In this document: positions 2,520 through 44,785 of the stretch, piece by piece
How the letters are laid out: each line of letters starts with the position of its first letter
Numbering within the stretch: the first letter of the stretch is position 1
NCBI GenBank assembly: GCA_009691305.1
Contig: SICS01000002.1
Location: forward strand, 1-45,038
Length of the DNA stretch: 45,038 bases
Source of the DNA: Candidatus Peribacteria bacterium
Lineage (GTDB): Bacteria; Patescibacteriota; Gracilibacteria; Peribacterales; Peribacteraceae
Direction: 5' to 3'
Made by a program: the position numbers and the translations under genes
Notes under the pieces: generated by a model
The model's input: only the letters and a program-made list of their open reading frames with translations
Database searches by the model: none
Told to the model about the DNA's origin: nothing

Positions 2520-3911
2520 ATGTCCCTCGACCACCAATTGCACAATGGCGACACTCAAACGGAGCTTTCTCCTTCACGTTCACGGGAATCCAAACGTTCA
2601 CGGGGATCCAACGGCCACGTCAAAAGCCCATTGGAGACATACCTCAAAGAGATCGGTGAAGCGCCTCTGCTCACAGCCGGTGAAGAAAAGGAGTTGGGCC
2701 AGAAGATCAGGGCGGGTGATACGGAAGCCCGTGAACGCATGATCCGTTCGAATCTACGCCTTGTGGTGGGCATTGCGCATGGCTTTCTCGGCAAGGGTTT
2801 GGGATTGCAAGATCTTATCCAAGAAGGCGCACCCGGGTTGATGCGTGCCGTGCAAGGGTTCGACCCCGAATTCAACACGCGCTTTTCAACATATGCCACC
2901 TACTGGATCAAGCGGTCGATACGTCAAGCAATTGCCGATAAGGCAAGAAACATCCGACTTCCTTCCTACATGCCTTCAAAGCTGGCTCGTTGGAAAAAAT
3001 TGAGAGAGGAATTGAACGAGCTTTTCGGATACGAGCCGTCCTTCGACCAAATCGCCGATGAGTTTGGCCTCAAGAAGAACAGGATAAAGCAGCGGTCGCT
3101 CTTCAGGCAGGCTCTCATCAGTTCGAAGTCGACATGGCAGGATGGTGGTCCCAGCGGCGAGGCCCACATCGATGAAATGGTGCAGGATGAGAGAGAGGCA
3201 GCTGCTGAAGAGAAAATTATGGACGCCGAAAATATCGGTCTCATTTTGGAAATAATTGACCAATTGGATCCGCGCGAAGCCATGATCCTTCGCTTGCGCT
3301 ACGGACTGGCTGACGAGGAACCGAAAACACTCAAAGAAATTGGCGAGTCAGTTGGCCTCACCATGGAGCGTGTCCGCCGAATTCAAAGCGAAGCGATCGG
3401 GAAAATACAAAAAAAACTCCATCTATCTCCCGATAACAACGGCCAAGCCCTACAAGCGGAAGTGCGCATCTTTGCGCCCCCAACACCGAGCATGCTCATC
3501 CACGAGCATCAGGTGCTGCTCCGGCACCGCCTCCTTATCCTGACTCAGGTGAGCAAATTTCCTGGGCCAAAAAGAAAGCTCTTCCTTCGCTCAAAGGAAG
3601 TGAATCGGCAGCAATATTCACACCTGCAGTATTGCCGTGAGGCGATGAAGACCCTCTTGGAACCTGACCTGATGCAAAAATGGGAATTTGTTCTGGGGGT
3701 GTTACAGAATGTCCAGAGCATAGCCACAGACAAGATAAATATCTGCCTGCAGGGGCATGACATGAGCAAACAAAATTTTAATAAATACATGCTACGGATG
3801 GAGAACATCTCCTTTGCACACACCGTTGGAAAAATATCGGAGAAAGATCCGGCGAGGGCGTTCAAGGAAGTAGATTTTCTACAAAGTACAAAGCAGCCTA
3901 AGCGCGAGTGA
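2520..3911 (+). CDS. sigma-70 family RNA polymerase sigma factor (RpoD-like) with ~165-aa C-terminal extension
   Basis: Region 1.2/2 (YLKEIGEAPLLTAGEEKELGQKI, RMIRSNLRLVVGIAHGF, LQDLIQEG, FSTYATYWIKRSIRQAI). Region 4 (LDPREAMILRLRYGL, TLKEIGESVGLTMERVRRIQSEAIGKIQ). The frame stays open for a further ~165 codons with no recognisable domain. ATG at 2520; the track starts at GTG 2496. Confidence 0.85.
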   Translation: MSLDHQLHNGDTQTELSPSRSRESKRSRGSNGHVKSPLETYLKEIGEAPLLTAGEEKELGQKIRAGDTEARERMIRSNLRLVVGIAHGFLGKGLGLQDLIQEGAPGLMRAVQGFDPEFNTRFSTYATYWIKRSIRQAIADKARNIRLPSYMPSKLARWKKLREELNELFGYEPSFDQIADEFGLKKNRIKQRSLFRQALISSKSTWQDGGPSGEAHIDEMVQDEREAAAEEKIMDAENIGLILEIIDQLDPREAMILRLRYGLADEEPKTLKEIGESVGLTMERVRRIQSEAIGKIQKKLHLSPDNNGQALQAEVRIFAPPTPSMLIHEHQVLLRHRLLILTQVSKFPGPKRKLFLRSKEVNRQQYSHLQYCREAMKTLLEPDLMQKWEFVLGVLQNVQSIATDKINICLQGHDMSKQNFNKYMLRMENISFAHTVGKISEKDPARAFKEVDFLQSTKQPKRE

Positions 3912-9796: not shown

Positions 9797-10953
9797 TGCC
9801 CTCCGCACCCAACAATCCCCGGCTTTACTGCGTAGTCCTCCTCAGCCTGCTCGGGGTGGTGGTGCTCGGTGATCGCATCGCTGCGCTCACGTTCCAACCG
9901 GGATCACTCTTCTTCCGCGGATGGGAGTATGTGAGCGGTGCGGGGCGGTACAACAACGCGCGTCGCAGCATCATCTACACACAGCGCGAGTACGGTGACC
10001 TTGGCAACATGCTGGGCGTCGATGCCTACAAGCAATGGCGGATGAATACGTACACGATGGACGATGAGGGCTACCGCAACGCACACGGCGCACGGAACCC
10101 CAAAGCGAAGGTCCTGCTCGTCGGCGATTCCTTCATCTCCGGCGTGGGCAATACCGATGACGATACGTTCGCGGTGCGACTCCAGGCGGCCCTCGGACGC
10201 CCCGTTGAGCCCTACGTGCCCGGCGATCTCTCGCTGCTGCTGCGTGAGAAGCGATTCCCCGAGAGCGTGAAAGGCTCTCTCCTGGTCTGGGGCAGGGTCG
10301 AGAGGAATCTGACGTCTGAGGATGGCGAGATGGCCAAGTGGCTGCGTGACTCCGTCTGTTTCGCTGAGACACCGCGGGAGAAGTCCATCAACGATGCCAA
10401 GACCTGGGTCAAACGTCTCATCGGCGGCCTCACCGAATATTTCCACATCTCGCCACTACGCCGCCTGGGCCAACACCTCTTCCAGGAGCTCCGCTTCGCC
10501 GTCACGGGAGGCCACGCATCCAGCGTCGTCGTCCCCGAGAACGGGTCCGACATACTCTTCTTCGCCAAAGATGTCGGCCTGCTCTCGCAATCTGCAGACG
10601 ACCGTCAGATGACGTCCGTCGCCGATGCCATCGCCCACGCGCGCGATTGCCTCGGCACGCTTGGCATATCACTCCTCGTCGTCACGATCCCCGATAAGTC
10701 GCACGTCTACGTTGCCGATGTTCCCGCGTCCCGCAAACCTGCCAAGCCCCTCTCCCCCGATCCGCTTGAGGTCCTCGAGAAGCTGCTGCGCGGCCGGAAG
10801 ATCGCGTCGGTCAATCTCACACCCGCGTTCATCCAGCAGGCCAAGAATGCCAAGCGTCTCTACTGGAACGACGACACGCATTGGAACCCCACGGGCATCA
10901 ACCTGGCGGCCGTGCATACCGCGAGTGCTATCAAGAAGCTGAAGTTGAAATAG
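9796..10953 (+). CDS. AlgJ/AlgX/PatB-like SGNH-fold acyltransferase (DHHW family)
   Basis: N-terminal TM anchor, GDS block (LLVGDSFISG) and DTHW block (WNDDTHWNPTG). The start overlaps the MBOAT stop (TGATG), suggesting translational coupling. Confidence 0.75.
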   Translation: MPSAPNNPRLYCVVLLSLLGVVVLGDRIAALTFQPGSLFFRGWEYVSGAGRYNNARRSIIYTQREYGDLGNMLGVDAYKQWRMNTYTMDDEGYRNAHGARNPKAKVLLVGDSFISGVGNTDDDTFAVRLQAALGRPVEPYVPGDLSLLLREKRFPESVKGSLLVWGRVERNLTSEDGEMAKWLRDSVCFAETPREKSINDAKTWVKRLIGGLTEYFHISPLRRLGQHLFQELRFAVTGGHASSVVVPENGSDILFFAKDVGLLSQSADDRQMTSVADAIAHARDCLGTLGISLLVVTIPDKSHVYVADVPASRKPAKPLSPDPLEVLEKLLRGRKIASVNLTPAFIQQAKNAKRLYWNDDTHWNPTGINLAAVHTASAIKKLKLK

Positions 10954-13951: not shown

Positions 13952-14038
13952 TGGACGTCTGGAGGGTTTCATGGAGGCCTCCAAGATGTCTTGCGATGGA
14001 CTCCACCTTTGGTTGTGGAGGCCTTCACGGAGGCCTCC

Positions 14039-14692
14039 ATGGAGGATATGGTGGAGGCTATGACAGTCCCCTACCTCACAATCAGTGAAGCAGCAGAGAA
14101 GACAAGACGCTCCGAGAGCACGGTACGGAGGGTCATCCACAGTATCGCCAAAGAAAAACATCCCGATCGCGGATTATTGCAGCCGAGCATCGGTGAGGTG
14201 AAGGAGTTCAAGAAGAAAGGGGAAAACTTCACGTGGAAGATTGCCGAGGAAGTCCTGCTCCGGAATTTGCAGCGAGTCCAGGAGCAAGAGAAAAAAAAGA
14301 CCACTCCATTCTCTTCCAACGTCGACGTTGAAATCCTTGCCATGTTGAAGCACGAGCTGGAGCAGAAGAGTAAGCACATCGAAAAGCAGTGGGAGGTGAT
14401 CGCCTCCTTGAATGAGCGGTTGCGCGAAGGGAACATCCTGATGGGTACGTTGCAGAAGCGCCTGGCGATTCCGGAGGCCTCCACGCCGTCGGAATCGGTC
14501 CTGGAGGCCGTCACCCTGAAGCCCTCCCCGCCTGACCGGCGGGCAGGCGCGGAGGCCTCCGTGAAGCCCCCCAAGAAGGCCTCCAAAATGCCCTCCACTG
14601 GAGCCTCCAAGAAGGCCTCCATGGAGGCCTCCACGCACACGTCATCCAGCAAGAAGAAGAGGGGATTCTTCGCTTGGTTTAGCGGAAATTAG
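14039..14692 (+). CDS. hypothetical HTH (excisionase/MerR-like) plus coiled-coil protein with EAS/KKAS repeat tail
   Basis: YLTISEAAEKTRRSESTVRRVIHSI resembles an HTH_17-type motif. Central coiled-coil-like segment and Lys/Ser/Ala repeat tail. Start uncertain (TTG 13991, ATG 14039, 14048 or 14060). Confidence 0.55.
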   Translation: MEDMVEAMTVPYLTISEAAEKTRRSESTVRRVIHSIAKEKHPDRGLLQPSIGEVKEFKKKGENFTWKIAEEVLLRNLQRVQEQEKKKTTPFSSNVDVEILAMLKHELEQKSKHIEKQWEVIASLNERLREGNILMGTLQKRLAIPEASTPSESVLEAVTLKPSPPDRRAGAEASVKPPKKASKMPSTGASKKASMEASTHTSSSKKKRGFFAWFSGN

Positions 14693-16514: not shown

Positions 16515-16904
16515 ATGCGGGGCATGCAACTCCAGAGATTGCGCGGCCGGAAGGTCTGCGACCGCCTCATACGGCACGGAAACGCCTGGAAAGGCCGCCA
16601 CATGCACGTTCGGTGGCTGGTTGGTGCTCCACGACATCCGGCGGCCAAAGACCGCGCAGCGGCCATTTATGTGGGAACCTTGGCCTCCACCAAGCTCGAT
16701 AAGTCTGCTGTGAAACGAAATAGAATGCGCCGTCGGTGCCGGGAGGCCCTCCGCTTGAGCCTCAAAGAACTTCCGGAGATTTCCCAGTCGCTCCAGTTGT
16801 TGATTGCCCCGCGCTCCTCTAGCCTGAGTGCCCCGTTTCCTGCGCTCCAGCAGGACATCCAGTCCTTCTTCTCACTCCATGCCAGAAGCACTCAAGCGCA
16901 ATAA
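16515..16904 (+). CDS. rnpA: ribonuclease P protein component
   Basis: Basic protein with the RNR motif region KSAVKRNRMRRRCREALR. Followed by yidC, as in the conserved rnpA-yidC arrangement. No rpmH seen upstream. Confidence 0.85.
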   Translation: MRGMQLQRLRGRKVCDRLIRHGNAWKGRHMHVRWLVGAPRHPAAKDRAAAIYVGTLASTKLDKSAVKRNRMRRRCREALRLSLKELPEISQSLQLLIAPRSSSLSAPFPALQQDIQSFFSLHARSTQAQ

Positions 16905-18270
16905 TCTTTTCCAGTTCGCCGTCCTCTTCATCACGCTGTACCTGGGCATGCAGTTGCTGTTCGGTGTGTTCTTCCCGTCGCAAAACCAGCCGCAACAGAC
17001 GGCGGGCCCGCGCCTGACTGCGAGCTCCAGTTTCATGATCGGGAACCACCCCATCGTCACGCTCGAAAACAGGCCGAGTGGCTCACAGTCTTTTGGCGTC
17101 GGTGGATGGGTGCAATCGAAGTGGTGCTCTGCTCAGAGGTTCTTTACGGGGATGCCCACTGCCCATGAATGCGCAGCGAAAGCGGTCGCCTACACTGGTA
17201 CGCCACTCACTCTGGAAAACCGCTGCCCACAGCCATCATTTGATGTCTTCACCGTGCAGGATGCCGGCGCGCCGGGAGAGAAGGTCACCCCCGTCACCTC
17301 CGCCGACCTCGCCGTTCCGTGCGACCCCATCGCCACATTCGGTCCCGGCGAGAGTATCCCCATCAGCCTCGCACCGTGGAAGTATTCGCTGTTCGAAAAA
17401 GTTGGCGTCTACGAAGTGCGCATCCCGGGCGCGGCCGTCGCCACATCTGGATCCGGCGCAGCAGTCGCCTCCGCGACCAGCGTGCGTTTCGCGATCGCCG
17501 AGCCGGGTATTTTCACGAAGGTTTTCCGCACGTTCATCTCCGCGCCGTTCCTCAACTTCCTCATCTTCATCGCATCGCACTCGCCCGGCTACAACCTGGG
17601 AATCGCCATCATTTTACTGACACTCGCGGTGAAAATTTTGCTCTTCTTCCCCACCCAGCACGCACTCGAAGGACAGAAGAAAATGCAGATGCTGCAGCCA
17701 AAAATTGCGGCCCTCAAATCCAAGTACGGTGACGATGCCAAGCGCATCCAGGAGGAGACCATGAAGCTCTGGAAGGAGCACAAGATCAACCCGTTCCAGA
17801 GTTGTCTGCCCATGGTCATCCAGTTTCCGGTTCTCATCGGGCTCTTCTACGTGATCCGCGACGGCAGCAACCTCGCGCTCTCGCACCACCTCATCTACGG
17901 GCCCTACCAAAATCTCTCGTGGCACTTCGGCACAAACTTCCTTGGCCTCGATCTCCTCACGCCCAATATTATTGTCATGCCTGCTCTTCTGGTCGCGATG
18001 CAGTTCTTCCAGATGAAGCTCACATTCAGCATCCAGAAGCGGAAAAAGGATAAGCAAGATGTCATTGATGTTGCCGCTGACGGTAAGCCTGTAAAAGAAG
18101 CCGCGTCGCCCGAAGACCTCCAGCAGAAGATGATGCTCTACGGATTACCGTTGATGATCGGATTCTTCGCACTCCAATTCCCCGCGGCTGTCGCGGTCTA
18201 CTGGGGCGTTTCTACACTCTTCGCTATTGGGCAGCAGGTGATTGTGAATCGAGAGCATTTGCGTGTGTAA
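16879..18270 (+). CDS. yidC: membrane protein insertase YidC
   Basis: Conserved core LLTLAVKILLFFPTQHALEGQKKMQMLQPKIAALKSKYGDDAKRIQEETMKLWKEHKINPFQSCLPMVIQFPVLIGLFYV. ATG 16879 chosen (MPEALKRNNLF...); it overlaps the rnpA end. Confidence 0.9.
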   Translation: MPEALKRNNLFQFAVLFITLYLGMQLLFGVFFPSQNQPQQTAGPRLTASSSFMIGNHPIVTLENRPSGSQSFGVGGWVQSKWCSAQRFFTGMPTAHECAAKAVAYTGTPLTLENRCPQPSFDVFTVQDAGAPGEKVTPVTSADLAVPCDPIATFGPGESIPISLAPWKYSLFEKVGVYEVRIPGAAVATSGSGAAVASATSVRFAIAEPGIFTKVFRTFISAPFLNFLIFIASHSPGYNLGIAIILLTLAVKILLFFPTQHALEGQKKMQMLQPKIAALKSKYGDDAKRIQEETMKLWKEHKINPFQSCLPMVIQFPVLIGLFYVIRDGSNLALSHHLIYGPYQNLSWHFGTNFLGLDLLTPNIIVMPALLVAMQFFQMKLTFSIQKRKKDKQDVIDVAADGKPVKEAASPEDLQQKMMLYGLPLMIGFFALQFPAAVAVYWGVSTLFAIGQQVIVNREHLRV

Positions 18271-18284
18271 AACCGGATTGCGGA

Positions 18285-18686
18285 TTACGAATTTCGGAAG
18301 CTTGGTCGGGCAGAAAGATATCGAATAAAGCCGCCAATCATACGCCCCAGTTTTTCTGTCAGCTCCTTGAGCTTTCGGAATGTTTCTTGATCAATGTATT
18401 GCTCATCTAGCGCATCATAAAGTTGTGCACGAACTTCGCCCGCAGATCGTTTTGCATATCCGAGAAATTGAATGAATTCAGGGTTTGTTTGTGCTTCAGC
18501 ACCTTCAGCTACGTTGTACATAATAGATCGTGCAGCACGTGTGATTTGATCAATGAATGTAAAATCTTTACGCACGTTTGGATGCCTGCAGATGGAACGC
18601 ACTTCGCGTACCAACAGCCTGGCTTCTTGCCAAATTTCCATGTCCTCGAACTTGTGAGAAGGCGTCATGAGCCCATTGTGAAGCAT
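18285..18686 (-). CDS. four-helix-bundle protein (23S rRNA intervening-sequence protein family, TIGR02436/PF05635; Avd-like)
   Basis: FEDMEIWQEARLLVREV ... QITRAARSIMYNVAEGAEAQTNPEFIQFLGYAKRSAGEVRAQLYDA matches the family pattern. The last codons (RPSFRNS) are encoded by the heptamer array. Alternative start at ATG 18668. Confidence 0.85.
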   Translation of the reverse strand: MLHNGLMTPSHKFEDMEIWQEARLLVREVRSICRHPNVRKDFTFIDQITRAARSIMYNVAEGAEAQTNPEFIQFLGYAKRSAGEVRAQLYDALDEQYIDQETFRKLKELTEKLGRMIGGFIRYLSARPSFRNS

Positions 18687-18764
18687 GAAATTTCATTGAA
18701 TAGTCTCTTAAAAAAGATTCTTGTCCGTGTGCCATATTCTTGGCTATCTGATGTGGTAAATTCA

Positions 18765-18786
18765 GTTCCACTACCCTGTGGAACAT
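18765..18786. promoter_or_regulatory. GTTCCAC-N6-GTGGAAC palindrome upstream of 4HB gene 1
   Basis: GTTCCACTACCCTGTGGAACAT, about 80 nt upstream of the 4HB start. Related 22-mers occur at 34899-34920 and 39199-39220. Confidence 0.55.
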
Positions 18787-18830
18787 CCCGCAATCCGCCA
18801 TCCGAAATCCGCAATCCGCAATTATTCCTT

Positions 18831-19901
18831 TTAGGCGACTGTCACCTCCTTGCATAGGTACACGTCCTGTATTGCGTTGAGGATCTCCACCCCCTCTTCC
18901 ATTGGCTTCTGGAAGGCCTTCCTACCCGAGATCAACCCTGCGCCGCCGGCGCGCTTGTTGATCACGGCGGTCATCACGGCCTGCTGCAGATCGTTGTCGC
19001 CGCTGGCCCCCCCACTGTTGATCATGCCGATGCGTCCCATGTAGCAGTTAGCCACCTGGTAGCGGCACAAATCGATGGGGTGGTCGCTGCTCAAATTCTC
19101 GTACATGCGCTTGTCTAATTTCCCGTACGAGCTGTCCCCGGTGTTGAGCGCTTTGAACCCGCCGTTCACCTCGGGAAGTTTCTGTTTGATGATGTCCGCC
19201 TCGAGCGTCACGCCCAAGTGGTTCGCCTGCCCCGTGAGGTCCGCGGCAAGGTGGTAATCGACCCCGTCTTTCTTGAATGCGGAGTTGCGGACGTAGCACC
19301 ACAAAACCGTGAAGAGCCCTAGCTGATGCGCCTTTGCGAATGCCTGCCCCACCTCCACAATCTGCCGTCCGGACTCGTTCGACCCGAAGTAAATCGTCGC
19401 GCCGACGCCCGCCGCGCCCATGTCCGCGGCTTGTTCGACGGTCGAAAACATTACCTGGTCGAACTTGTTCGGGTAGGTCATCAACTCGTTGTGGTTGAGC
19501 TTCACGATGAAGGGGATTTTCGATGCGTATTTCTTCGAAACAATGCCGAGCGCGCCCACCGTCGAGGCCACCGCATTGCATCCGCCCTTCACCGCGAGTT
19601 GCACCAAATTCTCCGGGTCAAAGTAGTCGGGATTTTTCGCAAATGACGCTCCAGCCGAGTGCTCAATCCCCTGGTCGACCGGCAAAATCGAGAGGTAGCC
19701 TGTGCCCTTTAAACGGCCGTGGTTGTAGAGCGACTTCAAATTGTCGATAACCTTTTTTGACCTGTCTGAAGCCGAAAAAACCTCTTCCACCGTTTTCATA
19801 CTGGGGAGATGGAGCTTCTCTTTGGCGATCGTTTTTGATGCGTGATTCAGGAGGCTGTCGGCTTTGTCTCCCAGGAGAGTGCGGATGTCGGCGTAGTTCA
19901 T
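18831..19901 (-). CDS. fbaB: class I fructose-bisphosphate aldolase (FbaB/DhnA family)
   Basis: Collinear with E. coli FbaB as I recall it: [97 protein letters not shown]. Start taken at MNYADIRT (19901). Confidence 0.93.
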
Positions 19902-20348
19902 GAAAAAAGGGGAATGCCTCCACAGTAGCATGTCACTTTCCCCTCGTCATTGGCCCTTACAGTGAATCTGCAATTCTCCTCAATCGGATGACAATGGAGT
20001 CCTCTCCTGGAAGGTCCACAATTTCAGCCTCTTCGCGCAGTGTGCTCCCGATCAGCGTGTGGTACAGCTGGCACCTGTTGGCGTTCGAATTCCGTTGCAA
20101 GATCGACGATTGCGTCATGCCCTCGCATGATGTCTTTTTTGTGGATTTCGCTGATAAGTCCGCGAACGACGTTTGCCTGATTTGCAGGAGAGAGTTGATC
20201 CATCCGCTTGATTGTATGCCGCTTCAAAATTTGACGCAATATCAAAATATTCTATTGTATTAATATGAAGAATTACTTACAATACAATCATCCTGAATGA
20301 AATTGGCATAGTTTTGCCAATCAGGATGTTCCTCAAGAGGAGGTACGT

Positions 20349-27616: not shown

Positions 27617-27716
27617 TATCTCGATACGTTCGTGGCTCCGCCACGAACTACTCGATATGACAGGTGCTGTCATCCCGAGTAGCCCGCAGCGGAGCTGCGG
27701 GCGTAACGAGGGATCA
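27617..27716. repeat. REP-like elements, inverted doublet (copies 2 and 3; REPIN-like)
   Basis: Reverse copy at 27617-27662 and forward copy at 27668-27716 (TGTCATCCCGAGTAGC-CCGCAGC-GGA-GCTGCGG-GCGTAACGAGGGATCA), head to head. The FemAB-type gene stop (TCA 27714-27716 on plus) lies in the last 3 nt of the forward copy. Confidence 0.75.
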
Positions 27717-28712
27717 TCCCAGGAGTTTTCTCTTCATTCGAAGCAGAGTTTTTGTGACGGGACGCAGAATGATTTCCTGCTCCGGGGGATACGTGATGAC
27801 CGAGCCGCCGAACTTGGCTTTGAATTCGCTGACGCTGGCCCAGGGGTGTTTTTTTAGTGGAGACGGCGACGTCTCCGCTTGGGGGGCGATGCCGAACAGG
27901 TCGTAGGAGGTGCAGCCGTGGGATCGGCAATACTTTATGGCTTCCCACTGCAGTAAATACGGAGCCATGAGCTCCCTGTGGGCGTTGGAGGAGGCGCCAT
28001 AGTAATACGTGGCCTGCGTGCCCCAGACGACGCCCAGGAGCCCTGCCACATGCGTCTTTTGGGCGGTCATGGCCAGCATCAGGAAGCTGCCGGGCAAACC
28101 CCTCAGGAAGTGCTCGTAGAAGGCTGCCTTGTGGCCGCGGAAGCTGTCCCTGCGTGCCGTCTCTTCTCCTAGGCGGGCATAGGCCTCGGTGTCATCCGAT
28201 TGCTCGACATCGATACCATGTTTTTCGGCCAGCCGGATGTTATAGCGGCCCTTGGGTTTCATTTGGGCGAGCAGTGCCTCATCATTCAGTGTTAGATCAA
28301 GAATCCGAGTCGCTTCAGGCATGACGAATCGGCCTGAGTTGCGAATTTCGGATTTCGGATTTCGGAAAGGTAGATGTGGTGAAAAATGAATAGTGAGAGC
28401 GCCATTCTCTTTTGCATCTGCAATGATTCTTTCTATAAAATCCGTAATCCGTAATCCGTAATCCGTAATCATAAGCGGTCCGCGCGGTATCTCCCACGTA
28501 CTCAGTCCAAGACTCGTCCTATCAATCACCACGAGAGCGGAGGCCATGATCTGCTCAGCATCCATCTGCGCATAAATCCGCACCTCGCGCTGAAGAGCTT
28601 TCTGAAATTGGCTCCATTCCAGCGACTGCCACAATGAACCTTCGGGGTGCGTCTTGATCCACTGATCATAGGCATGCAAATCCTCCGGCGATGTAAGGCA
28701 ACGAATATCCAT
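27714..28712 (-). CDS. FemAB-family peptidoglycan interpeptide-bridge (aminoacyl-tRNA-dependent) transferase
   Basis: [81 protein letters not shown] are family hallmarks. Confidence 0.85.
28342..28470. repeat. inverted CGGATTN heptamer arrays inside the FemAB-type coding sequence, read through in frame
   Basis: Plus strand CGAATTT-CGGATTT-CGGATTT-CGGAAAG (28342-28369). Minus strand CGGATTA x3 plus CGGATTT (28438-28465). Translated as [11 protein letters not shown] and [10 protein letters not shown] in the track protein. Confidence 0.8.
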
Positions 28713-32367: not shown

Positions 32368-33231
32368 ATGTCCAAAAAAGTCACTATCGGCCTCGTACAG
32401 ATGTCCATGGAACATCATCCAGCCGGTAATCTGGAGTATGCCATCGAGATGGTCGCCAAAGCGGCGGACAAAGGCGCGCAGATCGTGTGTCTGCCTGAGC
32501 TCTTCCAGAGCCCGTACTTCTGCCAGAAGAAGGATGACAAAAGCGCATTCGATCTCGCAGAGCCAATCCCCGGCCCTGCAACTAAAGCGCTTTCCGAAGC
32601 GGCAAAGAAGCACAAGATCGTCCTCGTCGGTGGATCGATCTTCGAGAAGACAAAAGAGGGGACGTACTACAACACCACGCCGGTCTTCGATACCGACGGC
32701 TCGCTCCTCGGAACCTATAGGAAGACGCATATTCCCGAAGACATCCTCTATCACGAAAAACAGTACTTCAGTCCCGGCGATACCGGCATCAAGGTCTTCA
32801 AAACGAAATATGGGAAGATCTGCCCGCTGATCTGCTATGACCAGTGGTTTCCGGAAGCCGCGCGCCTCGCCACGCTCCAGGGTGCCGAGATCCTCATTTA
32901 CCCCACCGCGATCGGTGTCATCGATTCCGCAGTCGAAGAGAACATCACGGGAGACTGGGAGCAGATGTGGCGGAACGTGATGCTCGGGCATGCGGCGGCG
33001 AACAACGTCTACGTGTGCGGCCTCAATCGGGTGGGCACCGAAGGCGCCATCACCTTCTGGGGCGGCTCCTTTATAGCGGCGCCGAGCAGCGAGGTCCTCG
33101 CGAAGGCGGGTAATAAGGAGGAGATCATCCTGGCGGTATGTGATCTTGACCGGGTGAAGGCGATACAGGAGGCTTGGATGTTTTTGAAGAATAGGAGACC
33201 GGAGGTTTATGACGGACTTACGAAGCACTAA
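32368..33231 (+). CDS. aguB: N-carbamoylputrescine amidase (carbon-nitrogen hydrolase family)
   Basis: Nitrilase-superfamily Glu/Lys/Cys blocks (IVCLPELF, YRKTHIP, ICYDQWFPE). Adjacent to agmatine deiminase. Confidence 0.85.
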   Translation: MSKKVTIGLVQMSMEHHPAGNLEYAIEMVAKAADKGAQIVCLPELFQSPYFCQKKDDKSAFDLAEPIPGPATKALSEAAKKHKIVLVGGSIFEKTKEGTYYNTTPVFDTDGSLLGTYRKTHIPEDILYHEKQYFSPGDTGIKVFKTKYGKICPLICYDQWFPEAARLATLQGAEILIYPTAIGVIDSAVEENITGDWEQMWRNVMLGHAAANNVYVCGLNRVGTEGAITFWGGSFIAAPSSEVLAKAGNKEEIILAVCDLDRVKAIQEAWMFLKNRRPEVYDGLTKH

Positions 33232-33316
33232 GCACTAAACTCTAAGCCCTAAACAATATCTCAATTCCCAATGAAAAAAATTGTTTAGGATTTAGTACTT
33301 AGGATTTAGAATTTCG
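33221..33316. repeat. gene-less hairpin made of inverted heptamer arrays (CTAANNN units)
   Basis: Left arm CGAAGCA-CTAAGCA-CTAAACT-CTAAGCC-CTAAACA (33221-33255), 26-nt loop. Right arm on minus CGAAATT-CTAAATC-CTAAGTA-CTAAATC-CTAAACA (33282-33316). The aguB stop lies in the left arm. Confidence 0.8.
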
Positions 33317-34391: not shown

Positions 34392-34420
34392 GGAAAAGAA
34401 ACCGGAAACCAGAAGCCAGG

Positions 34421-34801
34421 TTAGGTGAGGGGTTGAGGTTGAGGTGTGTAGTATTTTTGGATGATGGAATGGAAAATAAGTTTCAAACTTCGAGCTTCTT
34501 TCAGGAGCGATAGTCGCTCTTGCTCAAGAGCTGGTTCAAGTCTCATATCAAACATGTCTAACCAGAACATGGATTCCTTTGCCTCCTTCCGGGAAATTTT
34601 CAGATGGTATGCACAATCTTTCTTTGTGAACGCTTCGTTGGCCTCAATATAGTTAGCACCGACAGAACCTGATGATCGAAGGAGCTGTTTTGCGTCATCA
34701 GAGTAGGCAAGTTGCTTCGGCAATTGATGGAGCCACCGGCGGATGTTTTTGCCAAAGTCAGCAGTCCTTTCGGCCAGATCCTGTCTTTCAGCATTCGTCA
34801 T
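34421..34801 (-). CDS. four-helix-bundle protein (23S rRNA intervening-sequence protein family; Avd-like)
   Basis: QLLRSSGSVGANYIEANEAFTKKDCAYHLKISRKEAKESMFWLDMF matches the family pattern. The C-terminal TPQPQPLT is encoded by the flanking repeat array. Confidence 0.8.
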   Translation of the reverse strand: MTNAERQDLAERTADFGKNIRRWLHQLPKQLAYSDDAKQLLRSSGSVGANYIEANEAFTKKDCAYHLKISRKEAKESMFWLDMFDMRLEPALEQERLSLLKEARSLKLIFHSIIQKYYTPQPQPLT

Positions 34802-34898
34802 GCCATTACCATATGTGACTTACAGATGGCGGAAACGCAGTTAGAAATAGAAAAAATGATCGTGCCTAACTTTTTATCTAATGTAAGCCAAAAAATCA

Positions 34899-34920
34899 GT
34901 TCCACACCCCCATGGAACAT
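34899..34920. promoter_or_regulatory. palindrome GTTCCACACCCCCATGGAACAT upstream of 4HB gene 2
   Basis: Identical 22-mer at 39199-39220. About 100 nt upstream of the 4HB start. The adjacent block 34869-34890 is 19/22 identical (inverted) to 39228-39249. Confidence 0.6.
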
Positions 34921-34997
34921 ACCCCATACCTTGTACTTTACCCGGCTTCTAAGACCTGGATTCTCGTACCTTTTGCCGATTCTCGTCACAAATTCAT

Positions 34998-39065: not shown

Positions 39066-39075
39066 ACGGAATCTC

Positions 39076-39190
39076 TACCCCCTCCCCCAGCCCCTCCCCC
39101 TGAGGGGAGAGGGGAGTTGGGGTATCTCCACAATTCAACAAGCCCCTTTCTCCCGCGCACGGGGGAAAGGGGTTGGGGATAGGGGGTTTT
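39076..39190. repeat. CCCCNNN / GGGGNNN heptamer-type hairpins after rpoB
   Basis: TACCCCCTCCCCCAGCCCCTCCCCCTGAGGGGAGAGGGGAGTTGGGGTA (39076-39123) and CCCCTTTCTCCCGCGCACGGGGGAAAGGGGTTGGGGATAGGGGG (39143-39186). May also act as the rpoB terminator. Confidence 0.6.
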
Positions 39191-39196
39191 GAGTGG

Positions 39197-39260
39197 ATGT
39201 TCCACACCCCCATGGAACATCCGAACGTGGCTTACATAAGAGTAAAAGTCTCCATCTCAA
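39197..39260 (+). promoter_or_regulatory. cassette-type palindrome plus conserved leader block, oriented toward ssb
   Basis: ATGTTCCACACCCCCATGGAACAT (39197-39220) followed by TGGCTTACATAAGAGTAAAAGT (39228-39249). Both match the region upstream of 4HB gene 2. Confidence 0.55.
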
Positions 39261-39333
39261 AAAGTGATCTTCTCCGACCCCCCTCCCGCGATCAGCCGGG
39301 ACTTTTTACGATGATCGACCGCTCTTTCTCCTC

Positions 39334-39351
39334 GCAGGCAGGTATGCCTGC
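39334..39351. repeat. GCAGGCA-GGTA-TGCCTGC hairpin
   Basis: Member of the short hairpin family also seen at 5041-5062 and 43045-43062. Lies 27 nt upstream of the ssb start. Confidence 0.55.
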
Positions 39352-39377
39352 ACTTCTATTTCTTTCCCCCATTTCTT

Positions 39378-40724: not shown

Positions 40725-41385
40725 TTTTTGAGAAATGTTACTCATCGCAACACATGGATGCCTCGACTCTGCATTCCGATGAAGGACGTGGCCAGCAACG
40801 ATATGCTTCGGTGAGCCGCTAGGCAGGCGTTACCAGCCGAAGATTTCCGAATGGGGAAACCCCACGAGAGTTCTGTCTCGTGATCCGCTCACGCGGAAGG
40901 TCACTCTGTGAACTGAAACATCTCAGTAACAGAGGAAAAGAAATTAAATTAAAGATTCCCCCAGTAGTGGCGAGCGAACAGGGATCAGCCCAAACCGCGT
41001 ACTTGTACGCGGGGTTGTAGGACCTCGATATGTGATTCCTTCCTTTATAGAAGAACGTCCCTGGAACGGGCGGCCATAGAGGGTGATAGCCCCGTAAGCG
41101 AAATAGAGGAAGACACTAGAGGAATCCTGAGTAGGGTCGGACACGTGAAATCCGGCCTGAATCCGGGTGGACCACCATCCAAGGCTAAACAGATGCAGAG
41201 ATCAATAGCGGATAGTACCGTGAGGGAAAGGTGAAAAGCACCCCGGAAGGGGGATGAAATAGTCTCTGAAATGTGTTGCGTCCAAGGAGTCGGAGCGGAC
41301 TTGTTCCGTCACGACGTTCCTTTTGCATAATGAGCCAACGAGTGTGTTCTCAGTGGCGTGGCTAAGGCAGTTTCCTAGCCGGAGC

Positions 41386-41417
<32 letters not shown>

Positions 41418-41812
41418 TCGCTGGGACACGACCCGAAACCGGGTGAGCTATCCATGAGCAGGTTGAAGCCCGCCGAAAGGCAGGTGGAGGACCGAACCAT
41501 AGCGTATCGCAAGACGTTGGGATGACTTGTGGATAGGAGTGAAAAGCTAATCGAACCCGGAGATAGCTGGTTCTCCTCGAAATGCCTTTAGGGGCAGCCT
41601 CGTCGGGCACGGCGGGGGGTAGAGCGACTGTTTGGATGCGGGAGTCACCTCGACTTACCAAATCCTGACAAACTCCGAATACCCGCCTTTAATGCCGACG
41701 GGAGTGAGACAGTGGCAGCGAATTGCCATTGTCGTAAGGGAAAGAGCCCTTACCATTCGCTAAGGTCCCAAATTATCGTTCAGTGGGAAAGGTGGTGTAT
41801 GTGCATCAACAA

Positions 41813-41843
<31 letters not shown>

Positions 41844-42177
41844 TAAAGAAAGCGTAACAGCTCACTGGTCGACGCACGTATGCGCCGAAAACTCAACGGG
41901 GCTAAACGATAAACCGAAGCGGTGGATCTCCTATGTCCTTCGGGACGTAGGTGGTGGTAGAGGAGCGTTCCGTTCAGCTGTGAAGCAGTGTTGTGAAGCA
42001 TTGTGGAGCGTACGGAAGCGAGACTGTTGGCATGAGTAACTACTAGGCAGGTGAAAACCCTGCCCGCCGAATCCCCAAGGTTTCCCACGCAACGGCAATC
42101 GGCGTGGGGTTAGTCGGTCCTAAGGTCAGGCCGAAAGGCGTAGCCGATGGATAACAGGTCAATATTCCTGTACTTCT

Positions 42178-42345
42178 CGGGAATCGATAAAAGGGCGGTC
42201 GTTGAGAGTTTTACGAGCCTCTGTCTCTACCATTTTGTACATATACATAGACGCAGGTCTTCGACCTGCGGATCGCGCGTCGAAGACGCGCGCTATGTGT
42301 CCAAGATGGTAGAGATATGTTCGCGAAAAAGGATACTTCCGTTCT
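42178..42345 (+). other. ~150-nt insertion / expansion segment in 23S domain III
   Basis: Between CCTGTAC and GTGACGGGATGGGAAG, E. coli and Bacillus have about 25-30 nt and this gene has about 175 nt. It contains stem 42224-42233/42306-42315 enclosing two hairpins (GCAGGTC-TTCG-GACCTGC and GCGCGTC-GAA-GACGCGC). Confidence 0.6.
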
Positions 42346-42801
42346 AGGAGCGGTGTGACGGGATGGGAAGATCGCAGCGTGCGCATTGACTGCACGTGTA
42401 ACACGTAAGACGTTGAGAGTGGTAGGGAAATCCGCCACTTGAGTCGAGCGTGGAATCCAAATGGCTCCCGCGAGGGGGTCGAGTGCGTACCTTTCCGTCT
42501 CCAAGAAAACCATCGCTCACAGAGTTCCGGGAAACCGTACCGCAAACCAACACCGGTGGGGTGGTCGAGTAGACCAAGGCGAACGGGAAAACTCGCGTTA
42601 AGGAACTCGGCAATGAAGCGTCCGTAACTTCGGGATAAGGACTACCAGTCTGTAGTGGATTGGTTGCAACAAAAGAGGTCAGGCGACTGTTTATCAAAAT
42701 CACAGGTCCCTGCTAAGCTGCAAAGCAATGTATAGGGGCTGATGCCTGCCCAGTGTCAGAAGGTCACGTAAGGGGGTTTACGCCTCCGAACTAAGCCCTG
42801 A

Positions 42802-42855
<54 letters not shown>

Positions 42856-43044
42856 GGTCGAATAACCCCGTACCAGTCGCGCTTCGGCGCTCCGGTACAG
42901 GGCATGCTTGCCCGAATGATCAGCAATGATCAGCACTGAGGAATTTTTTCTAGATTTTGATAGTAAGTCTCGCGGTCGAGACCCGCGATGCCCCAAGCGA
43001 AAGCAAAGGGCGATCTCATAATTATTTTTTTGTTGGCGCCGAGC

Positions 43045-43062
43045 GCAGGCATACTTGCCTGC
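43045..43062. repeat. GCAGGCA-TACT-TGCCTGC hairpin inside the intron
   Basis: Exact reverse complement of 5044-5061. Confidence 0.6.
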
Positions 43063-43494
43063 AAAGAGTTAAGGAATCTCTCTAAAAATTCTGATTACAG
43101 ACCGTATTGTGGATACCATTCACCCCACGTCGCTCGCTTCGGCGAGCTATGCGGGGCAAACAGTGTAAAACGTCGCCATATGCTGGAACATCCGAGTATC
43201 CCCTATGCCGTAAGGTACGGGGTGCGGACAATCAGCAGGAAAGAATTTCTTATTTTTCTTCCATTCATTATGACACGTACCAAAGAATCTCCGGCTCTCG
43301 ACGACAAGCAATTGCCGAAGGGAGTAGATGGATACAATCTCGCCTTGATTGAAGCGGCACCTGCTGCCATTTGGCAGTTAGGTTTTGCAGAGATATGCGG
43401 GAATTACCGTCAGGAAATTCAGGAGTGCGGTGCATTCAGTGAATCGGATAATAAGAACTGATCCTCAGAGACTTTACGCGATGCCCGCGACTTG

Positions 43495-43540
43495 TTCCTC
43501 GTTACGCTCGTGACTCTGTCACGAGCTACTCGGAATGACA
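43495..43540 (-). repeat. REP-like element copy 6, in the P8 loop of the intron
   Basis: Minus strand reads TGTCATTCCGAGTAGC-TCGTGAC-AGA-GTCACGA-GCGTAACGAGGAA. Flanked directly by the P8 stem CCGCGAC/GTCGCGG. Confidence 0.75.
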
Positions 43541-43621
43541 GTCGCGGAGATGATAAAGTCCGATCCCTGTGGCGACACAGGGCGCGCGAAATTGAAGCGC
43601 GGCTAAAAAACAATCGTTATG

Positions 43622-43667
43622 TCCCTCGATACGAAAATCGCTCGGCGATTTTCTACTCGGGATGACA
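43622..43667 (-). repeat. REP-like element copy 7, in the 3' peripheral region of the intron
   Basis: Minus strand reads TGTCATCCCGAGTAG-AAAATCGC-CGA-GCGATTTT-CGTATCGAGGGA. Confidence 0.7.
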
Positions 43668-43725
43668 TAGGTGTAAGTGCGCTCCTGCAAGGGAGATCTC
43701 GGTTCACCACCGAGAGGAACGCGCT

Positions 43726-43790
43726 GAATTGAAAATTGATAATTGAAAATGGGAAATTATTTTCCATTTACCATTTTTCATTTTTCATTC
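43726..43790. repeat. AT-rich inverted heptamer-array hairpin near the intron 3' end
   Basis: AATTGAA-AATTGAT-AATTGAA-AATGGGA-AATTATT facing, on the minus strand, AATGAAA-AATGAAA-AATGGTA-AATGGAA. Confidence 0.7.
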
Positions 43791-44361
43791 GCATGTTTAT
43801 GAAGTTCCGACCCGCACGAATGGTATAACGGTCTGATCACTGTCTCGACGCGAGGTCCGGTGAAATTTCAATCCTGGTGCAAATGCCAGGTAGACCACGG
43901 TAGGACGAAAAGACCCTATGAAGCTTTACTGTACGCTGACATTGTTTCGTTGATTTGCGTGCGCAGAATAGGTGGGAGGCTTTGAGGCTCTAGCTTCGGT
44001 TAGGGCGGAGCCAACTTTGAGATACCACCCTCGCGTTTCGCCGAAACTCACCCTGTCTCTGAAACAGAGCGGGGGACAGTGTTTGCCGGGCAGTTTAACT
44101 GGGGCGGTTGCCTCCTAAAGTGTAACGGAGGCGCGCAAAGGTCCACTAGCGCCGGATGGAAATCGGCGTTGTCGTGTAATCGCACAAGTGGGCCTGACTG
44201 TGAGACTTACAGGTCGAGCAGGGACGAAAGTCGGTGATAGTGATCCGGCAGCCGGACAACTTATACTTGTCCTTACCACGTGGGTGGGCTGTCGCTCAAC
44301 GGATAAAAGTTACTCTAGGGATAACAGGCTGATCGGTTCCAAGCGCCCACAGCGACGAACC

Positions 44362-44478
<117 letters not shown>

Positions 44479-44518
44479 TGGCCTCTATCCTCCGTGGTCA
44501 CTTAGAAACGTGAAGAAA

Positions 44519-44551
<33 letters not shown>

Positions 44552-44609
44552 AACCTCTGGTGTACCTGTTGTCGCGTCAGCGGCATTGCAGGGTAGCTAT
44601 GTTTGGACG

Positions 44610-44642
<33 letters not shown>

Positions 44643-44785
44643 CCTTCTGAGATTGCGTTTCTCCATCAGCCCGCCGGAAGACGACCGGCTAGATCGGCCA
44701 CAGATGTACGTGCGGCAACGCATTCAGTCGAGTGGTACGAACGGGCAATTGAACATTTTTCAACCTTAGCCTTTAACAGCTAGGG

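Follow-up and report, generated by a model that had tools for sequence, protein, structure and literature searches.

A four-helix-bundle gene of the PF05635 family enclosed by inverted heptamer arrays between yidC and fbaB of a Peribacteria bacterium, and the recurrence of this layout across the family

What kind of element occupies the space between the convergent genes yidC and fbaB in a 45,038-nt stretch of DNA (the window; contig SICS01000002.1 of assembly GCA_009691305.1) from a Candidatus Peribacteria bacterium? The space is filled by a cassette in which a single gene for a four-helix-bundle (4HB) protein of the family PF05635/TIGR02436 is enclosed by inverted tandem arrays of seven-nucleotide units. 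In our study, the cassette is explained best as a stem-loop module of the type known from the intervening sequences (IVSs) of 23S rRNA, situated at an intergenic site instead of in rRNA, with a hairpin that would be long-lived and a 4HB gene that would ride in its loop. The architecture matches that of the 23S rRNA IVSs which encode a PF05635 protein; we give this explanation roughly even credence.

The cassette reaches from the stop codon of yidC to that of fbaB (Table 1). Tandem Repeats Finder reported the right array with a period of 7 at 18788-18822 (5.0 copies, score 56), and the pattern CGGATTNCGGATT, allowing at most two mismatches, was matched 17 times in comparison to 5.5 expected, a number which none of 100 shuffled sequences reached. 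The arms, with arrays of four to five heptamers each, enclose a loop of about 500 nt. An inverted-repeat search paired 18277-18298 with 18801-18822 (22 nt, 91% complementary), and the inverted-repeat pairs of the cassette overall have arms of 22-25 nt with 84-91% complementarity. When the sense RNA was folded, the arms paired with each other in a stem of about 27 bp that closes the minimum free energy structure as well as the centroid (z=-2.7), and none of 100 shuffles folded as well. The GC content of the cassette is 0.448, whereas yidC has 0.570, fbaB 0.564 and the window 0.560; only 1.7% of 550-nt intervals are as low. The last four codons of the 4HB gene (F-R-N-S) and its stop codon TAA were found to lie inside the left array. 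A preliminary description of this DNA, made from the letters only, had claimed that the gap is one unit, that both its ends are inverted tandem CGGATTN heptamers, that the interior is AT-richer than the flanking genes and that a 4HB-family gene takes its last codons from the array, and all four points were borne out. It had also placed a palindrome about 80 nt upstream of the gene, and this is the box GTTCCAC-N6-GTGGAAC, located directly inside the 5' arm at 79 nt from the ATG at 18686 and 97 nt from the ATG at 18668. The box is predicted to form a small hairpin of -10.4 kcal/mol and may serve as an operator, as a promoter element or as a hairpin in the RNA.

The gene-in-heptamer-hairpin layout is the rule for the 4HB family across phyla. 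We sampled 80 loci encoding 4HB relatives, one genome per species and 364 kb in all, from Peribacteria, Verrucomicrobiota, Planctomycetota, Acidobacteriota, Nitrospirota, Bacteroidota, Chloroflexota, Desulfobacterota and others; the control consisted of 389 kb of loci selected by fbaB from a metagenome scan, mostly without a yidC neighbour. Around the 80 homologues 134-135 arrays of period 7 were counted, in comparison to 2-32 for the other periods in the range 4-12, and their density was 36.8 per 100 kb as against 1.8 per 100 kb in the control, a difference of about 20-fold. These arrays concentrate within about 150 nt of either end of the 4HB gene and mostly measure 21-36 nt, i.e. three to five units. 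When arm complementarity was called at a flank-to-flank local stem score of at least 14, the 5' flank was complementary to the 3' flank for 60 of the 66 4HB genes, but the same was true of only 4 of 234 control intervals placed 1-1.5 kb away in these loci (p=1.6e-32); heptamer-array termini are thus systematic around TIGR02436/PF05635 genes, a point which the preliminary description had proposed to test. The stems have a median length of 31 bp and are 85% Watson-Crick paired, and the median arm score is 19.5 within a locus versus 8.5 across loci. Each locus was shown to keep complementary arms while the repeat unit differs between loci.

A like layout is present in finished isolate sequences, with AGGTTYA arrays in Riemerella anatipestifer and GGGGAAA/CCCCTTT arrays on a Nostoc plasmid, and it is therefore no artefact of metagenome assembly. 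The GC content of the 4HB gene falls below that of its flanks in every one of 79 loci, by 8.6 points on average, and tracks the GC content of the host (r=0.87). The offset being universal, AT-richness is a property of the family, and low GC as a sign of recent import was ruled out. In the literature covered, mostly without subscription journals, no statement was found that PF05635 genes generally have inverted heptamer-array flanks; the reports of such genes in cas loci (PMC3936711), in rRNA insertions of candidate phyla radiation (CPR) bacteria (PMC11270868) and beside the reverse transcriptases of diversity-generating retroelements (DGRs; PMC10053308) leave arrays unmentioned. The family-wide regularity appears to be undescribed so far.

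Two further observations were made on the family loci. 4HB homologues often stand on contigs of about 0.6-1.4 kb, several of which end in heptamer arrays (L009, L030, L033). Short-read assemblies thus seem to break at the arrays, and the 4HB copy numbers of metagenome-assembled genomes are probably underestimated. Five loci from Verrucomicrobiota, Desulfoluna and Bacteroidota (L033, L036, L042, L043 and L044) have a complete hairpin of GTT-type and AAC-type arms upstream of the start codon in addition to the 3' arm, so that the 5' arm has two possible partners, a layout that would permit a switch.

The orthologous fbaB-yidC junction was compared across Peribacteria. The cassette with the same CGGATT unit is present in L002, whose FbaB is 89% identical to that of the window. 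A heptamer hairpin without a gene occupies the junction in L163 (92%; 77-nt gap, unit CGTTTGC) and L162 (90%; 74-nt gap, unit GGTTAAT). The junction is empty in L164 (84%; 1-nt gap), and L165 (79%) has no cassette and an ordinary GC-rich hairpin. At about 77% FbaB identity, 4HB cassettes with matching arms were found in L015 (unit CGTTACT), L017 (CGTTTAT), L018 (CGTTGAT) and L022 (CGTTTTT/CGTTCTT). The remaining junction, L082 (75%), was the only extra one given by the fbaB-based metagenome scan; between 4108 and 5460 it holds a gene-less hairpin, a 91-aa open reading frame (ORF) without a Pfam match and a divergent 4HB gene of the same type as the one in the second cassette of the window (see below). 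In L018, an extra 100-aa ORF, also without a Pfam match, lies within the arms beside the 4HB gene, at 2920-3222 on the minus strand. The junction is therefore polymorphic for presence and absence, with filled, gene-less and empty states all seen, and the empty sites for which the preliminary description had proposed to look do occur, in L164 and L165, next to the gene-less hairpins of L162 and L163. These gene-less junction hairpins fold strongly (z between -4 and -6). The A1 profile detected no 4HB gene in the 21-kb regions L162-L165, and the search covered only these four regions of the genomes concerned.

The hairpin was thus shown to exist without the gene at the fbaB-yidC junction of the closest relatives, and the same holds for other junctions, an rRNA intron and a coding sequence. 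The several gene-less relatives announced by the preliminary description were recovered in the window by repeat search and folding, inside femAB, between aguB and aguA and inside the 23S rRNA gene (Table 1). Their units differ from that of the CGGATT cassette, except in the femAB hairpin, which is also of CGGATT type. At the aguB-aguA junction elsewhere, L162 has a hairpin with another unit (AATCATG) and L164 has none. The third hairpin belongs to an insertion of about 950 nt and is close to its 3' end; the insertion interrupts the 23S rRNA gene after ...CCUUGUCGGGU (roughly E. coli position 1925-1931). Its match to the group I intron model RF00028 was weak, with 29 bits and E=5e-5, and did not reach the gathering score, and the 157-aa ORF which the insertion contains has no Pfam match.

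The femAB hairpin is the most informative of these on how the arms behave. Alignment to FemX structures and to 16 Peribacteria orthologues has shown that its loop encodes a conserved FemAB segment, whereas its arms encode variable peptides with a seven-residue period; the same alignments rule out that the hairpin was inserted as a whole. Its position is kept in all five genomes read, i.e. the window and L162-L165 (there at about 10240-10420), while the orthologous units are GAGAATT, GTGAAAA, GTGGAAA and TGTTGAA in comparison to CGGATTA in the window, and the arms are complementary in each genome. Heptamer hairpins can hence be fixed in position and labile in sequence, with arms that change together, and import as a cassette is not required for their presence. 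In L164, the sod gene next to femAB was observed to contain a third array of the same unit, at a distance of about 700 nt. Since the closest relatives carry gene-less hairpins with other units at the fbaB-yidC junction, and since the loop of the femAB hairpin consists of native coding sequence, it seems to be the hairpin rather than the gene cassette that is primary, as a persistent unit subject to turnover.

These comparisons also bear on a DNA-level explanation, in which the cassette is mobile in the manner of a miniature inverted-repeat transposable element (MITE) or an integron cassette, the arrays being terminal inverted repeats or hairpin recombination sites for a recombinase encoded elsewhere and the gene-less hairpins deletion derivatives. 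The three states of the junction in close relatives would be expected from such mobility, as would the extra ORF inside the arms of L018, a 4HB phylogeny that is not congruent with genomic context, the scatter of family members over cas loci and rRNA insertions (PMC3936711, PMC11270868) and the many homologues on contigs of about 1 kb ending in arrays. However, neither a transposase nor a target-site duplication was seen at filled, gene-less or empty junctions, copies within the 45-kb window share no common arm sequence, and the gene-less hairpins of the closest relatives have units unlike CGGATT. The native loop and constant position of the femAB hairpin and the universal, host-tracking GC offset do not fit it either, and we regard this explanation as doubtful. 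Of the suggestion in the preliminary description that the element is possibly mobile or formerly mobile, the part concerning empty and gene-less sites stands; a transposase, a target-site duplication and, within the 45 kb of this genome that were covered, a family of near-identical copies were not seen.

Under the IVS-type explanation, the two arms would pair in a read-through transcript from fbaB or in the transcript of the cassette itself, and the resulting double-stranded stem may be cut by RNase III, so that the 4HB message would be set apart from the rest of the fbaB read-through. Excision of this kind has been shown for the IVSs of Coxiella, Leptospira and Salmonella (PMC4990558). Cutting would also account for the tolerance of these modules in rRNA, in introns and between genes. 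The repeated arms could pair in several registers, and the long-range pairing may in this way be robust to insertions and deletions. The complementarity itself is probably kept mainly by processes at the DNA level, such as slippage within arrays and hairpin-templated copying between arms; arm maintenance is attributed to this level since mismatches show no preference for G.U over A.C. The hairpin can accordingly be pictured as a long-lived unit which would be gained, lost and turned over with the 4HB gene carried in its loop. What the preliminary description had called an IVS-like, hairpin-ended cassette outside rRNA agrees with the termini, the stem of about 27 bp, the AT-richer interior, the PF05635 ORF and the gene-less relatives; no 23S rRNA match was found beside the 4HB genes in 161 loci, and the likeness to rRNA IVSs rests on published descriptions.

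Several results weigh against this explanation. Among 2078 aligned stem positions, the mismatches comprise 65 G.U and 69 A.C pairs, i.e. no wobble preference, and selection on one (sense) RNA strand is not claimed. Of 40 consensus units of arrays, 34 contain GTT, in comparison to 13.8 expected after shuffling, within a logo of R-G-T-T-Y-N-N. This core, the arm polarity relative to the gene (5' arm G+T-rich in 47 of 60 loci, 3' arm A+C-rich in 88% of arrays) and the length of three to five units would be superfluous for a plain RNase III stem and hint at sequence-specific recognition. The 4HB tree is star-like, with an identity of 0.62 within and 0.60 between genomic contexts, and being uninformative it does not distinguish vertical inheritance at the site from re-insertion. 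A scan of the cassette for sigma-70-like promoters and intrinsic terminators gave nothing above shuffle expectation. Finally, the authors who described the Coxiella ORF considered that the IVS protein is probably not made (PMC4990558).

Some of these results touch a plainer explanation as well, namely that the 4HB gene is an ordinary resident whose flanks are only terminators or insulators between the convergent yidC and fbaB, the periodicity being a by-product of replication slippage. L165 indeed has a plain GC-rich hairpin at this junction, and heptamers, which reportedly outnumber all other long simple repeats of bacteria, have been ascribed to polymerase slippage (PMC4679880, PMC4692102). 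Arms that lie 500 nt apart, however, are unable to act as an intrinsic terminator, and the terminator scan was empty. The association of the arrays is highly specific to one protein family, a conserved GTT core is unexpected from slippage alone, and hairpins also occur inside a coding sequence and an rRNA intron. Hence this possibility is considered very unlikely.

The protein encoded in the loop belongs firmly to its family. The automatic ORF extends up to the ATG at 18686 (18285-18686, minus strand), and the profile searches were run on it; homologues and the database entry P0001 (127 aa) point to 18668 as the likely start. It matched PF05635 with E=4e-31 (107.8 bits, cut-off 33.8) and TIGR02436 with E=1.7e-30 (105.4 bits, cut-off 24), while the other Pfam match listed, DUF7752, was far below its cut-off. 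The AlphaFold2 model (predicted local distance difference test score, pLDDT, 93.2) is an up-and-down bundle of four helices, and Foldseek aligned it with 2GSC (XCC0516; TM-score 0.84 by query and 0.94 by target) and 2RLD (BT_0352; 0.75 and 0.87), each of which was deposited with five chains; a Xanthomonas homologue is a homopentamer according to the Coxiella paper (PMC4990558). More distantly, it superposes on Avd (4DWL; 0.75 and 0.88) and also on 8UBE, a solved entry of a DGR ribonucleoprotein reverse transcriptase that contains Avd, so that the Avd-like fold supposed in the preliminary description is confirmed. A PDB sequence search with the family profile found 2GSC and 2RLD but not Avd.

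The RxxxSxxxNxxE motif described for the 4HB family (PMC3936711) is present as R44, S48, N52 and E55 in TRAARSIMYNVAEG. In an alignment of 35 sequences S48, N52 and E55 are invariant and R44 nearly so (at least 90%); the invariant polar residues are D40, Q41, S48, N52, E55, K73, S75 and E78. Comparison of the window gene with its closest orthologue, that of L002 (86% identity), gave a ratio of nonsynonymous to synonymous substitution rates (dN/dS) of 0.095, and the protein is therefore functional and under strong purifying selection. The best reading is that the 4HB gene is a selected passenger in the hairpin loop.

As the fold matches that of Avd and of the DGR ribonucleoprotein structures, and as PF05635 is the Pfam family found most often beside DGR reverse transcriptases (PMC10053308), a role as an Avd accessory factor of a DGR had to be considered. 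At this locus, yidC and fbaB flank the cassette directly and leave no room for a reverse transcriptase, and no pair of template and variable repeats was found, the direct repeats in 18200-18900 being only 10-15 nt. With both parts missing, a DGR role is excluded at the yidC-fbaB locus, and we attach next to no probability to it.

The selected protein and the GTT core together suggest another model, rival or complementary to the IVS-type module: the core, the arm polarity and the length of three to five units would fit binding of the arrays by a pentameric protein. In a 4HB ring of five subunits, each subunit would recognise one R-GTT-Y core along some five tandem units of single-stranded RNA or DNA, in the manner of the trp RNA-binding attenuation protein (TRAP) on triplet repeats, or of a gene for a REP-associated tyrosine transposase (RAYT) flanked by hairpins of repetitive extragenic palindromic (REP) sequences. 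The effect would be autoregulation of the gene, and action in trans on gene-less hairpins, which would be maintained, processed or regulated. Such a model is favoured by the tight linkage of 4HB gene and arrays across phyla, by the retention of the GTT core while the other four of the seven unit positions are free, by the strand polarity of the arms, and by arrays of mostly 21-36 nt along a median stem of 31 bp. The five-chain structures, the homopentameric Xanthomonas homologue and the presence of Avd in the ribonucleoprotein 8UBE agree with it, as do the invariant polar residues and the low dN/dS; the absent wobble bias is compatible with recognition of DNA. On the other side, GTT is often missing, both from units in the window (CGGATTN, AAGCACT, AATTGAA) and from femAB orthologues (GAGAATT, GTGAAAA), and units differ among the hairpins of one genome, a diversity that is hard to reconcile with recognition by one sequence-specific protein. 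The regions L162-L165, moreover, hold hairpins and yielded no 4HB gene within the limits of the search given above. We consider this model possible, although rather unlikely.

In its widest form, the proposal would be that heptamer hairpins and PF05635 proteins constitute one widespread two-part system, in which a pentamer recognises arrays of about five R-GTT-Y units and acts in trans so as to maintain, spread, process or regulate gene-less hairpins. This we put forward tentatively, as an unlikely generalisation. If true, it would join the rRNA IVSs, the heptamer repeats of cyanobacteria and Xanthomonas and the function of Avd relatives outside DGRs. Intergenic spacers, structured RNAs such as rRNA IVSs, introns and RNase P RNA, and even coding sequences such as femAB would then contain the hairpin targets.

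Table 1. Positions of the cassettes, hairpins, boxes and neighbouring genes in the window
Feature	Position	Strand	Remarks
yidC	16828-18270	+	PF02096; stop codon 18268-18270
Whole cassette	18271-18830	-	fills the 560-nt gap between convergent yidC and fbaB
3' arm (gene orientation)	18274-18300	-	plus strand: CGGATTG CGGATTA CGAATTT CGGAAG
4HB protein gene	18285-18668	-	127 codons 18668-18288; stop 18287-18285
Leader between box and 4HB start codon		-	about 95 nt, within 18271-18830
Palindromic box GTTCCAC-N6-GTGGAAC	18765-18784	-	20 nt; directly inside 5' arm
5' arm (gene orientation)	18786-18823	-	CGGATTG CGGATTT CGGATGG CGGATTG CGGG; five tandem heptamers
fbaB	18831-19931	-	PF01791 (DeoC/FbaB aldolase); stop codon 18831-18833
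femAB	27714-28712	-	FemA/FemB family peptidoglycan bridge-formation transferase; arrays 28342-28369 and 28437-28472
femAB hairpin	28339-28472	-	CGGATTA x4 / AAATCCG x3; in frame in coding sequence; z=-4.5
aguB-aguA hairpin	33218-33314	+	AAGCACT-type / TTTAGGA-type; z=-4.6; aguB = CN hydrolase
Second cassette	34392-34975	-	between aguA and rpoB; degenerate; GC 0.445
Second-cassette decayed heptamer-like flanks	34397-34445 and 34925-34965		
Second-cassette 4HB gene	34421-34801	-	divergent; PF05635 E=1.4e-10
Second-cassette box	34899-34918		GTTCCAC-N6-GTGGAAC type; upstream of 4HB gene
Third box copy	39199-39218		GTTCCACACCCCCATGGAAC; identical to second-cassette copy; 160 nt upstream of ssb, downstream of rpoB
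23S rRNA gene	40731-44762		
Short 23S insertion	42230-42405		about 175 nt; near model position 1500
Long 23S insertion	42857-43809		about 950 nt; group-I-like
ORF in long 23S insertion	42988-43461		157 aa
23S intron hairpin	43725-43792	+	AATTGAA / TTTTCAT; near 3' end of the group-I-like insertion; z=-3.6

A second cassette had also been announced in the preliminary description, and it is real: its PF05635 gene and its box are present, although its arms have decayed and their complementarity score of 9 is at background level. The encoded protein has 34% identity to that of L082 at the fbaB-yidC junction and gave a weak hhalign match to A1. The second cassette is absent at the aguA-rpoB junction of L164. 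The divergent 4HB gene of L082 is preceded by a degenerate GGTTCCAC...GAAC box. Outside the window, which has three copies, the strict box was found in L002, L012 and L013 only, and it is absent from most other loci; the third window copy has no 4HB gene nearby. The preliminary description had proposed to test whether the box systematically flanks 4HB genes, and this was not upheld: as a family-wide feature it was rejected, being limited to a subset of Peribacteria, with one window copy away from any 4HB gene.

A few other features of the window were recorded. The spacer between rpoB and ssb (39066-39377) also contains G-rich and C-rich inverted repeats, CCCCTCCCCCT and GAGGGGAGAGGGG. The gene order is rpoB, ssb and 23S rRNA, and there is no rpoC-sized ORF between rpoB and the 23S gene. 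The short insertion in the 23S gene has long complementary ends, CTCTACCATTTTG ... CAAGATGGTAGAG, and is therefore a helix extension of IVS-like type; it shows no heptamer periodicity and holds no ORF. A tandem repeat with a period of 12/24/36 nt (GGAGGCCTCCAA...) lies at 14551-14634 inside the ORF 13991-14692, with related GGAGGCCTCCAC copies at 14017-14062.

This study connects observations on a large protein family, PF05635. No family is more closely related to the DGR factor Avd, and PF05635 genes have been flagged in the vicinity of CRISPR-cas loci. To our knowledge, the origin and spread of 23S rRNA IVSs have been unclear since about 1990, and likewise the meaning of bacterial heptamer repeats. 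The unit at the yidC-fbaB junction links the PF05635 family to rRNA IVSs and is otherwise kin of known IVS or heptamer-repeat hairpins. The hairpin rule with its GTT core, and the persistence of hairpins in position despite turnover in sequence, make the question of 4HB function testable. On the practical side, the arrays apparently break short-read assemblies, vary the C-terminal tails of 4HB proteins and can impose peptides with a seven-residue period on host proteins.

In comparison to the 23S rRNA IVSs of Leptospira and Coxiella burnetii, the cassette has the same composition: a loop of about 430-550 nt holds a single PF05635 ORF of about 120-130 aa, the inverted repeats at the two ends form a stem of about 27-28 bp, and the GC content is below that of the host. 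In the Coxiella IVS, a 28-bp terminal stem is cut by RNase III in the middle, and its 5' part consists of three to four tandem GACAGAT heptamers (PMC4990558). The cassette differs in that it stands between two protein genes, outside the 23S gene, and in that both its arms are explicit heptamer arrays. The window protein is under strong purifying selection, whereas the Coxiella ORF has been reported as decaying.

With the short tandemly repeated repetitive sequences (STRRs) of heterocystous cyanobacteria and the heptamer pairs of Xanthomonas, the arrays share tandem 7-nt units in spacers and structured RNA genes and the potential to form stem-loops. Heptamer STRRs reportedly lie inside the gene of a cyanobacterial RNase P RNA, as Vioque is said to have described in 1997. 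In Xanthomonas, GGGAATC heptamers form 70-75 convergent pairs which could form stem-loops (PMC4692102); the terms S23 and 'intervening' are absent from that paper, and neither of these descriptions connects the repeats with PF05635 genes. Unlike both, the present arrays occur in a CPR bacterium, bracket a PF05635 gene, have a GTT core and have arms that co-vary.

The cassette resembles Avd of DGRs in its four-helix-bundle fold, the proteins being homologous at the level of CDD family cd16375 (PMC10053308), and differs from it in having neither a reverse transcriptase nor template and variable repeats. It resembles REP or REPIN elements with their RAYT in that a gene is flanked by an inverted, hairpin-forming repeat which also occurs without the gene, mostly at intergenic sites. 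The 4HB protein, however, has no HUH/Y1 transposase features, and unlike REPs the arms are tandem arrays with locus-specific units rather than members of a single sequence family spread over the genome, one hairpin being inside a coding sequence. With MITEs and insertion sequences, finally, the cassette shares terminal inverted repeats, which here are tandem arrays rather than a unique terminal sequence.

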